A DNA stretch of 47,785 bases from a virus (taxonomy: Duplodnaviria; Heunggongvirae; Uroviricota; Caudoviricetes). This document shows, piece after piece, positions 40,991 to 41,006 of the stretch. The stretch is from the IMG/VR virus record IMGVR_UViG_2529292853_000006. One strand, 5' to 3'. Within the stretch, counting starts at the first letter, position 1; every line of letters begins with the position of its first letter. A program made the translations under genes and the position numbers. The notes beneath the pieces are model-generated. The model was not told the DNA's origin. It saw nothing but the letters and a program-made list of their open reading frames with translations, and searched no databases.

Positions 40991-41006
40991 TGATTATTAA
41001 TAATCA
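40991..41006. promoter_or_regulatory. 16-bp perfect palindrome TGATTATTAATAATCA upstream of xisR
   Basis: Seen directly; AT-rich; between ydaC and xisR. Confidence 0.3.

Follow-up and report, generated by a model that had tools for sequence, protein, structure and literature searches.

The perfect 16-bp palindrome upstream of the excisionase gene xisR is probably the core of an 18-bp operator of the YdaT type, located at 40990-41007 in a Rac prophage. We base this reading on the match to the published YdaT box, on a cognate ydaT gene with a second box in the same prophage, on a position retained across clades, on a fixed spacing to a -10-like hexamer, and on the co-occurrence of the dyad with ydaT together with its resemblance to the box found there. 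That the regulatory sign of the site is activation we put forward with less confidence, and both the binding of YdaT at 40990-41007 and the transcription start sites given below are predictions from sequence. Seen this way, the site adds nothing new in kind: it is probably one more example of an operator already described, at a target not reported before that makes sense biologically.

The Rac prophage and the genes around the palindrome

The window, by which we mean the whole 47,785-nt stretch of DNA that was analysed, is an E. coli Rac prophage in the orientation opposite to the K-12 map. Positions 34894-41832 are 99.8-99.9% identical to K-12 MG1655, and because of the 99.9% identity to K-12 Rac we use the gene names rcbA/ydaC, xisR etc. 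throughout. The region is carried by 1930 of 5426 complete E. coli genomes, about one third, K-12 included. The gene order is recE (37124-39724), recT, ralR, rcbA/ydaC, xisR and the 5' half of intR, and the palindrome lies among the following genes:

40770-40979, plus strand: reading frame of rcbA/ydaC (DUF1187, Pfam PF06688), the gene upstream of the palindrome
41058-41273, plus strand: xisR (ydaQ), excisionase gene (Pfam PF06806), with the Shine-Dalgarno sequence GAGGTG at 41047-41052
41275-41832, plus strand: 5' part of intR, matching residues 1-202 of the 411-residue K-12 IntR by tblastn; K-12 colinearity ends at 41832

The function of XisR has been demonstrated (PMC4632033). In the window, intR keeps 202 of its 411 codons and is then interrupted by an incomplete IS2, of which a TnpB fragment lies at 41844-42509 on the minus strand, and behind the truncated IS2 lies an IS91-family transposase gene at 42970-44064, the region 41832-44064 matching the models for IS2 TnpB and IS91. 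This copy of Rac should be incapable of excision through its own integrase. In the other direction K-12 colinearity stops at 34894, and the immunity and replication module (33592-34894) is unlike that of K-12 Rac, with a repressor gene at 34348-34767 encoding a DicA-like helix-turn-helix protein.

The palindrome itself was as originally described, perfect and AT-rich: TGATTATTAATAATCA is present in one copy in the window, at 40991-41006, and falls as claimed between ydaC and xisR, inside the 78-bp gap from the rcbA/ydaC stop (40979) to the xisR ATG (41058). The proposed comparison with the same interval of K-12 Rac returned an identical palindrome in MG1655 (NC_000913.3, 1413504-1413519). By themselves the palindrome statistics give TGATTATTAATAATCA no significance. 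When the window was simulated 200 times with a first-order Markov model, there were 0.83 perfect palindromes of at least 16 bp per sequence and 60% of the simulations held at least one, and the window contains two perfect 16-bp palindromes, the second being GCAGTGCCGGCACTGC at 26323-26338. Conservation inside Rac-type prophages is uninformative as well, because the entire intergenic region upstream of xisR is nearly invariant there. The central 6 bp of the site do differ among Rac-type haplotypes (ATTATAAATAAT, ATTATGAATAAT), which indicates that constraint acts on the two half-sites, and the perfection of the 16-mer TGATTATTAATAATCA is incidental. The exact 16-mer had no occurrence in the literature searched.

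Resemblance to the YdaT box

YdaT has recently been established as the functional analogue of lambda CII in phages of the Rac/CP-933P/phi80 type, and is a helix-turn-helix tetramer with a POU-like fold of the HTH. Its operator, 5'-TTGATT-N6-AATCAA-3', comes from DNase I footprints and ITC measurements on YdaT of CP-933P (PMC9986795). In K-12 Rac the YdaT footprint over the ydaT start codon is ATGATTCATGAAAATCAA, and the K-12 and CP-933P-type alleles are reported to cross-bind each other's boxes (PMC11879457). In CP-933P, YdaT activates a PRE-type promoter that is silent without it and lies in the region on the ydaS side of the ydaT-proximal box (PMC8630535). The sites published for YdaT lie between racR and ydaS, at the start of ydaT and at the host gene rcsA. 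The corresponding features of the window are:

40990-41007, no strand: 18-bp dyad resembling the YdaT box, cTGATT-ATTAAT-AATCAA, with one mismatch to TTGATT-N6-AATCAA; contains the 16-bp palindrome
33592-34017, minus strand: ydaT, transcription factor and CII analogue, CP-933P/3C4R-type allele (Pfam PF06254, YdaT_toxin family)
34007-34024, no strand: TTGATTTTCATGAATCAA, a YdaT box without mismatch that overlaps the ydaT start codon; corresponds to ATGATTCATGAAAATCAA, the sequence footprinted in K-12
34046-34051, plus strand: -10-like TAGTTT, toward ydaS from the box at the ydaT start and 21 nt away from it

The half-sites of 40990-41007 agree with the published box at 11 of 12 positions. When at most one mismatch to TTGATT-N6-AATCAA was allowed, three sites were found in the 47.8-kb window against 0.35 expected, a number reached in none of 300 simulations. 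Besides the site upstream of xisR these include the ydaT-start box (34007-34024). The third, TTGCTTACCCTTAATCAA at 10560-10577, also has one mismatch; it lies within a 371-codon reading frame on the minus strand and probably matches by chance.

The element carries its own YdaT-family gene (ydaT, 33592-34017, minus strand). The encoded protein aligns over its full length with the crystallised YdaT of CP-933P, PDB 8BT1 (E = 2e-80), and with 3C4R (E = 1e-90). It is about 87% identical to the protein that defined the box and only 37% to K-12 YdaT, which shows the immunity region to be a different mosaic module in which the box is still present. The hexamer TAGTTT at 34046-34051 is, from its sequence and place, the likely core of a YdaT-dependent PRE-type promoter. 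At the ydaT start a TANNNT hexamer is always found 20-21 nt from the box toward ydaS, being TATGAT in K-12 (locus L033) and TAGTTT in the window (L036-L113 were also compared), and from this spacing we suggest that the YdaT-dependent reverse promoter of the PRE type probably lies directly beside the box. The K-12 study placed this reverse promoter at PracR4, about 190 bp from the box at the ydaT start.

Putative promoters on both sides of the box

The box at 40990-41007 is flanked by two diverging -10-like elements, TAACAT toward xisR and TACAAT toward the antitoxin RNA RalA:

41029-41034, plus strand: TAACAT, putative -10 of an xisR-intR promoter, 21 nt past the box, with C at -13 (41028)
41013-41041, plus strand: inverted repeat GGCGTCAAT (41013-41021) / ATTGGCGCC (41033-41041), enclosing the putative xisR -10 (fold of 41005-60)
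40964-40969, minus strand: TACAAT, -10-like, 20 nt from the box; the mapped 5' end of RalA lies 10 nt downstream of it
40776-40954, minus strand: ralA, sRNA acting as the antitoxin in the type I toxin-antitoxin pair RalR/RalA and running antisense to rcbA/ydaC (K-12 b4714 mapped on the window)

TAACAT aligns with the hexamers TATACT, TATAAT and TATAGT found 20 nt past the box in relatives. From it the start of xisR-intR transcription is predicted at about 41039-41041, which would place the centre of the box near -41.5 to -42.5. On the other side primer extension gave one major 5' end for RalA, K-12 position 1413556, equal to 40954 in the window (PMC4041452). A recognisable -35 is absent on both sides of the box, the sequence at the -35 position of the leftward (RalA) promoter being CAGCTA. 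As neither diverging promoter has a credible -35 and the box lies between them, the single dyad appears placed to serve both.

Conservation in diverged relatives

The loci compared were those of XisR homologues from species-representative genomes and viral contigs. Upstream of xis genes encoding homologues 50-70% identical to XisR (in Citrobacter, Enterobacter, Leclercia, Klebsiella, Atlantibacter and others) we found the dyad yTGAT(A/T)-N6-(A/T)ATCAr, and the distance from its first base to the xis ATG is 68 nt, the same as in Rac. The gene upstream of xis in these relatives is unrelated to rcbA; the position of the dyad is nonetheless kept. Regarding the conservation in related prophages that the original prediction looked for, it is accordingly the half-sites and their position that are kept in diverged relatives, while the central 6 bp vary.

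The spacing to the -10-like hexamer is nearly fixed. A TANNNT lies exactly 20 nt past the 18-mer in 23 of 24 non-redundant types of xis-upstream region, mostly as TATACT but also as TATAAT, TATAGT and TAAACT, and the sole exception is Rac with TAACAT at 21 nt. The boxes proximal to ydaT behave alike: in Rac-type loci TANNNT is found 20-21 nt toward ydaS in seven of seven unrelated ydaS contexts, and in the diverged loci at exactly 20 nt in 11 of 11, these latter boxes lying within coding sequence, so that their conservation is partly due to protein coding. With 20-21 nt between box and -10, the box is centred near -41.5, where an activator would stand in for the -35 that is lacking.

Further, the dyad at xis occurs together with YdaT. 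Counting YdaT-family reading frames up to 10 kb upstream of xis in 42 non-redundant types of xis-upstream region, we found both in 28, the dyad only in 4, YdaT only in 3 and neither in 7 (Fisher p = 0.001); it should be noted that the compared loci are mutually related, and that these and the other counts and statistics overstate the number of independent events, though several clearly separate clades agree. In all three types with YdaT only, the dyads are decayed or near misses.

The two sites of a locus also resemble each other. When each locus of about 11 kb was searched with the half-sites of its own xis box, the ydaT start often gave the best match or the sole good one, with no mismatch in three loci (L131, L305, L306) and one mismatch in three more (L133, L279, L322). 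Matching by the whole 18-mer instead of by half-sites is noisy because the spacers differ. The half-site types track between the sites, TGATT at xis going with TGATT at ydaT and TGATA with TGATA, and in a Klebsiella-like clade a decayed left half is common to both (CTGAAACTGAAATATCAA vs TTGACACTGGAATATCAG). In this clade (L149, L150, L155 and relatives) the left half of the box upstream of xis has been replaced by one to three tandem copies of ACTGAA, and where a single ACTGAA copy is present the dyad is lost.

Other explanations of the site

The AT-rich stretch could be simply core-promoter DNA, with -10 elements (AATAAT on both strands) and/or a UP-element-like tract belonging to constitutive or sigma-S promoters of xisR and RalA and with no dedicated regulator, an explanation we consider unlikely. 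A consensus scan does return TTGACG-16-AATAAT on the minus strand (10 of 12 positions) and TTAAAA-17-AATAAT on the plus strand (9 of 12), both -10s being within the palindrome. The palindrome further occupies -37 to -52 of the mapped RalA start, the position expected of a UP element, RalA is made in the absence of YdaT, and xisR is RpoS-dependent. However, the -10s inside the palindrome and the TTGACG are not conserved in the diverged loci, whereas TGA...ATCA and the -10 at 20 nt are. The minus-strand prediction would also require a RalA 5' end at about 40986 and not the single major end at 40954, and a UP element would need neither a dyad, nor a likeness to the box at ydaT, nor a co-occurrence with ydaT.

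We see little chance, too, that the dyad is bound by a protein other than YdaT, be it XisR acting in autoregulation, a CI-like repressor, YdaS, or one of the host proteins IHF, Fis and H-NS or a dimer of the FNR/CRP type. The motif TTGAT/ATCAA resembles FNR half-sites and WATCAA the IHF core, but TTGAT and ATCAA are separated by N8 here and by N4 in FNR sites, and the TTR element of IHF is missing (AATCAACATCGGG) and not conserved. For XisR it may be said that the dyad accompanies xis across clades; against this, one would not expect an Xis operator to recur over the start of ydaT or to vary in step with the sequence there, and near att in K-12 the motif is not enriched. For a CI-like repressor or a Cro-like YdaS, nothing like TGATT-N6-AATCA is found in the intergenic region between the repressor gene and ydaS (34269-34347). 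Among the host consensus sequences considered, those of LexA, Fur, ArgR, FNR, CRP, IHF and Fis all misfit in spacing or core bases; for sites of the FNR/CRP type (TTGAT-N4-ATCAA; TGTGA-N6-TCACA) the half-sites, here 8 bp apart, are wrongly spaced. H-NS and RpoS are reported to affect Rac excision and xisR (PMC4632033), and it was YdaS rather than YdaT that altered excision (PMC11014345), both of which speak for another protein. The original suggestion of a binding site controlling xis and int is supported by the comparative evidence, namely a position kept across relatives, a fixed distance to the -10, and a dyad that occurs together with ydaT and looks like the YdaT box of the same phage, and the binding proteins are probably others than the Xis, Int, IHF and Fis named at the time, YdaT, the CII analogue of the prophage, being the best candidate.

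It is quite improbable that the palindrome is a functionless product of chance in AT-rich intergenic DNA. About 0.8 palindromes of at least 16 bp are expected in the window and conservation within Rac carries no information, but chance would have to account for the match to a 12-position operator, a second box with its cognate gene, a conserved position between unrelated flanks, an invariant -10 spacing and the co-occurrence with ydaT.

An arm-type or accessory att site of Rac, or a transcription terminator of rcbA/ydaC, is hardly credible: the site does lie between the early-left genes and the recombination module with the palindrome just past a stop codon, but it is a dyad without the direct repeats of arm-type sites, and in K-12 some 1.6 kb separate it from the prophage end on the side of intR (1411899 vs 1413504 for the site), with xisR and intR in between, so the earlier idea of an attachment-site arm region does not hold. 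Arm and accessory sites for Int, Xis, IHF and Fis are looked for no more than a few hundred bp away from the att core, and the palindrome is outside that range. As a terminator the hairpin is weak (-2.8 kcal/mol, z = -0.28) and has no U tract, and no terminator-like site was called in 40400-41400.

Possible regulation of xisR-intR and RalA by YdaT

Taking the site as a YdaT operator, we suggest that when the repressor is absent or depleted YdaT would be made, bind the dyad at 40990-41007 and recruit RNA polymerase to the xisR-intR promoter, which would then be the functional counterpart of the CII-dependent pI of lambda. The box would be centred near -41.5 relative to each of the two diverging promoters, and YdaT bound there may also boost RalA. 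In the weak xisR -10, the C at -13 agrees with the sigma-S consensus and hence with RpoS dependence. Such dependence of xisR has been reported (PMC4632033).

Depletion of RacR raises YdaT and increases xisR/intR about 100-fold (PMC11014345; bioRxiv 10.64898/2026.09.06.749655), and this joint rise fits an activation of xisR-intR by YdaT. The authors who described the roughly 100-fold rise view the production of YdaT and the rise of xisR/intR as "functionally independent but coupled". If true, our reading would offer a direct mechanistic link from RacR depletion through YdaT to the rise of about 100-fold in xisR/intR, and it would suggest that the switch acting on xisR-intR also includes the RalA antitoxin. 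Read-through of the early leftward operon can also account for the rise on RacR depletion.

Several published results argue against this proposal. Wons et al. 2025 (PMC11879457) found only two Rac regions bound by YdaT among "a set" of fragments whose negative members are unnamed, and the fragment upstream of xisR may be one of these. Overproduction of K-12 YdaT left Rac excision unchanged, while YdaS changed it (PMC11014345, Fig. 8), which speaks against YdaT being a strong activator of xisR and intR, in K-12 at any rate. In the wild type YdaT is silent and RalA can still be detected (PMC4041452), and the leftward promoter is consequently not strictly YdaT-dependent. On the side of the sequence, the spacing in Rac is 21 nt rather than 20 and TAACAT is a weak -10. 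Finally, a transcript from a promoter upstream of xis would carry both Xis and Int, which is awkward for a role in favour of integration.

A hairpin may distinguish transcripts of different origin. In every clade (L010-L031, L114-L337) a G+C-rich inverted repeat surrounds the -10-like hexamer just 5' of the xis Shine-Dalgarno. Its arms differ in sequence between clades while the pairing is kept, as seen from compensatory changes in the alignment; the arm pairs are GGCGTCAAT/ATTGGCGCC in Rac and ACCGGCATC/GATGCCGGT, GCGATCAGCA/TGCTGATCGC and CCGCCGCA/TGCGGCGG in others. The hairpin could arise only in transcripts that enter from upstream, never in those begun at the enclosed -10. Further, we speculate, very tentatively and with more doubt than belief, that one YdaT-bound dyad is a shared class-II-like activator site switching on xisR-intR and RalA together, and that with the xis -10 set in a co-varying hairpin specific to read-through transcripts of the early operon the two classes of transcript are handled differently, a new answer to the problem that lambda meets with pI and sib.

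Comparison with known systems

The nearest relatives of the xisR site are the YdaT boxes, namely OM of CP-933P and the box at the ydaT start of K-12 Rac, with which it shares an inverted repeat at 11 of 12 positions, a YdaT gene in the prophage and a distance of 20-21 nt to a -10-like hexamer. It is set apart by its location upstream of xisR, some 7 kb away from the immunity region and with putative promoters diverging on either side, and as a predicted site it is not one of the published YdaT sites. A YdaT site at xisR is not mentioned in the Rac and YdaT literature searched, and the 2025 paper on YdaT binding sites never names xisR. For YdaT only the PRE-type target and the host gene rcsA have been described, and if our reading is true the site at xis-int would be the missing counterpart of lambda pI.

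As at lambda pI, a site for an activating establishment factor would lie over the -35 region of a promoter without -35 consensus at the recombination module. CII reads direct repeats, its consensus TTGC-N6-TTGC flanking the -35, whereas the Rac site is a dyad and has no TTGC repeats. A second difference is that pI is inside xis and gives Int only, while the Rac box and its inferred -10 are upstream of the xisR ATG at 41058 and would give Xis and Int.

The geometry also recalls class II activator promoters (about -41.5) and divergent pairs of the CRP/FNR type, in that a symmetric site near -41.5 is combined with a good -10 and no -35; the Rac site is, in addition, equidistant from two diverging -10s. 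YdaT is however a tetramer with a POU-like HTH and a different spacing of half-sites, and the analogy is one of geometry only.

Further dyads in related loci

In phi80, which has a YdaT-type CII, int is arranged differently and no dyad is found at the annotated pI, making this phage uninformative for the question of the xis site. It does hold a perfect third dyad, TTGATAAAACACTATCAA (L194, 38718-38735). Such third dyads, absent from the window and with no -10 at the 20-nt spacing, recur downstream of the replication genes. In Rac-type loci CTGATTAACGCGAATCAG is found about 2451 bp past the ydaT start (L039, L040, L053, L102), and in the Klebsiella-like clade TTGATATTTAGCTTTCAA lies about 2119 bp downstream of the ydaT start (L153, L173, L188, L190). 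The third dyads follow the half-site type of each clade.
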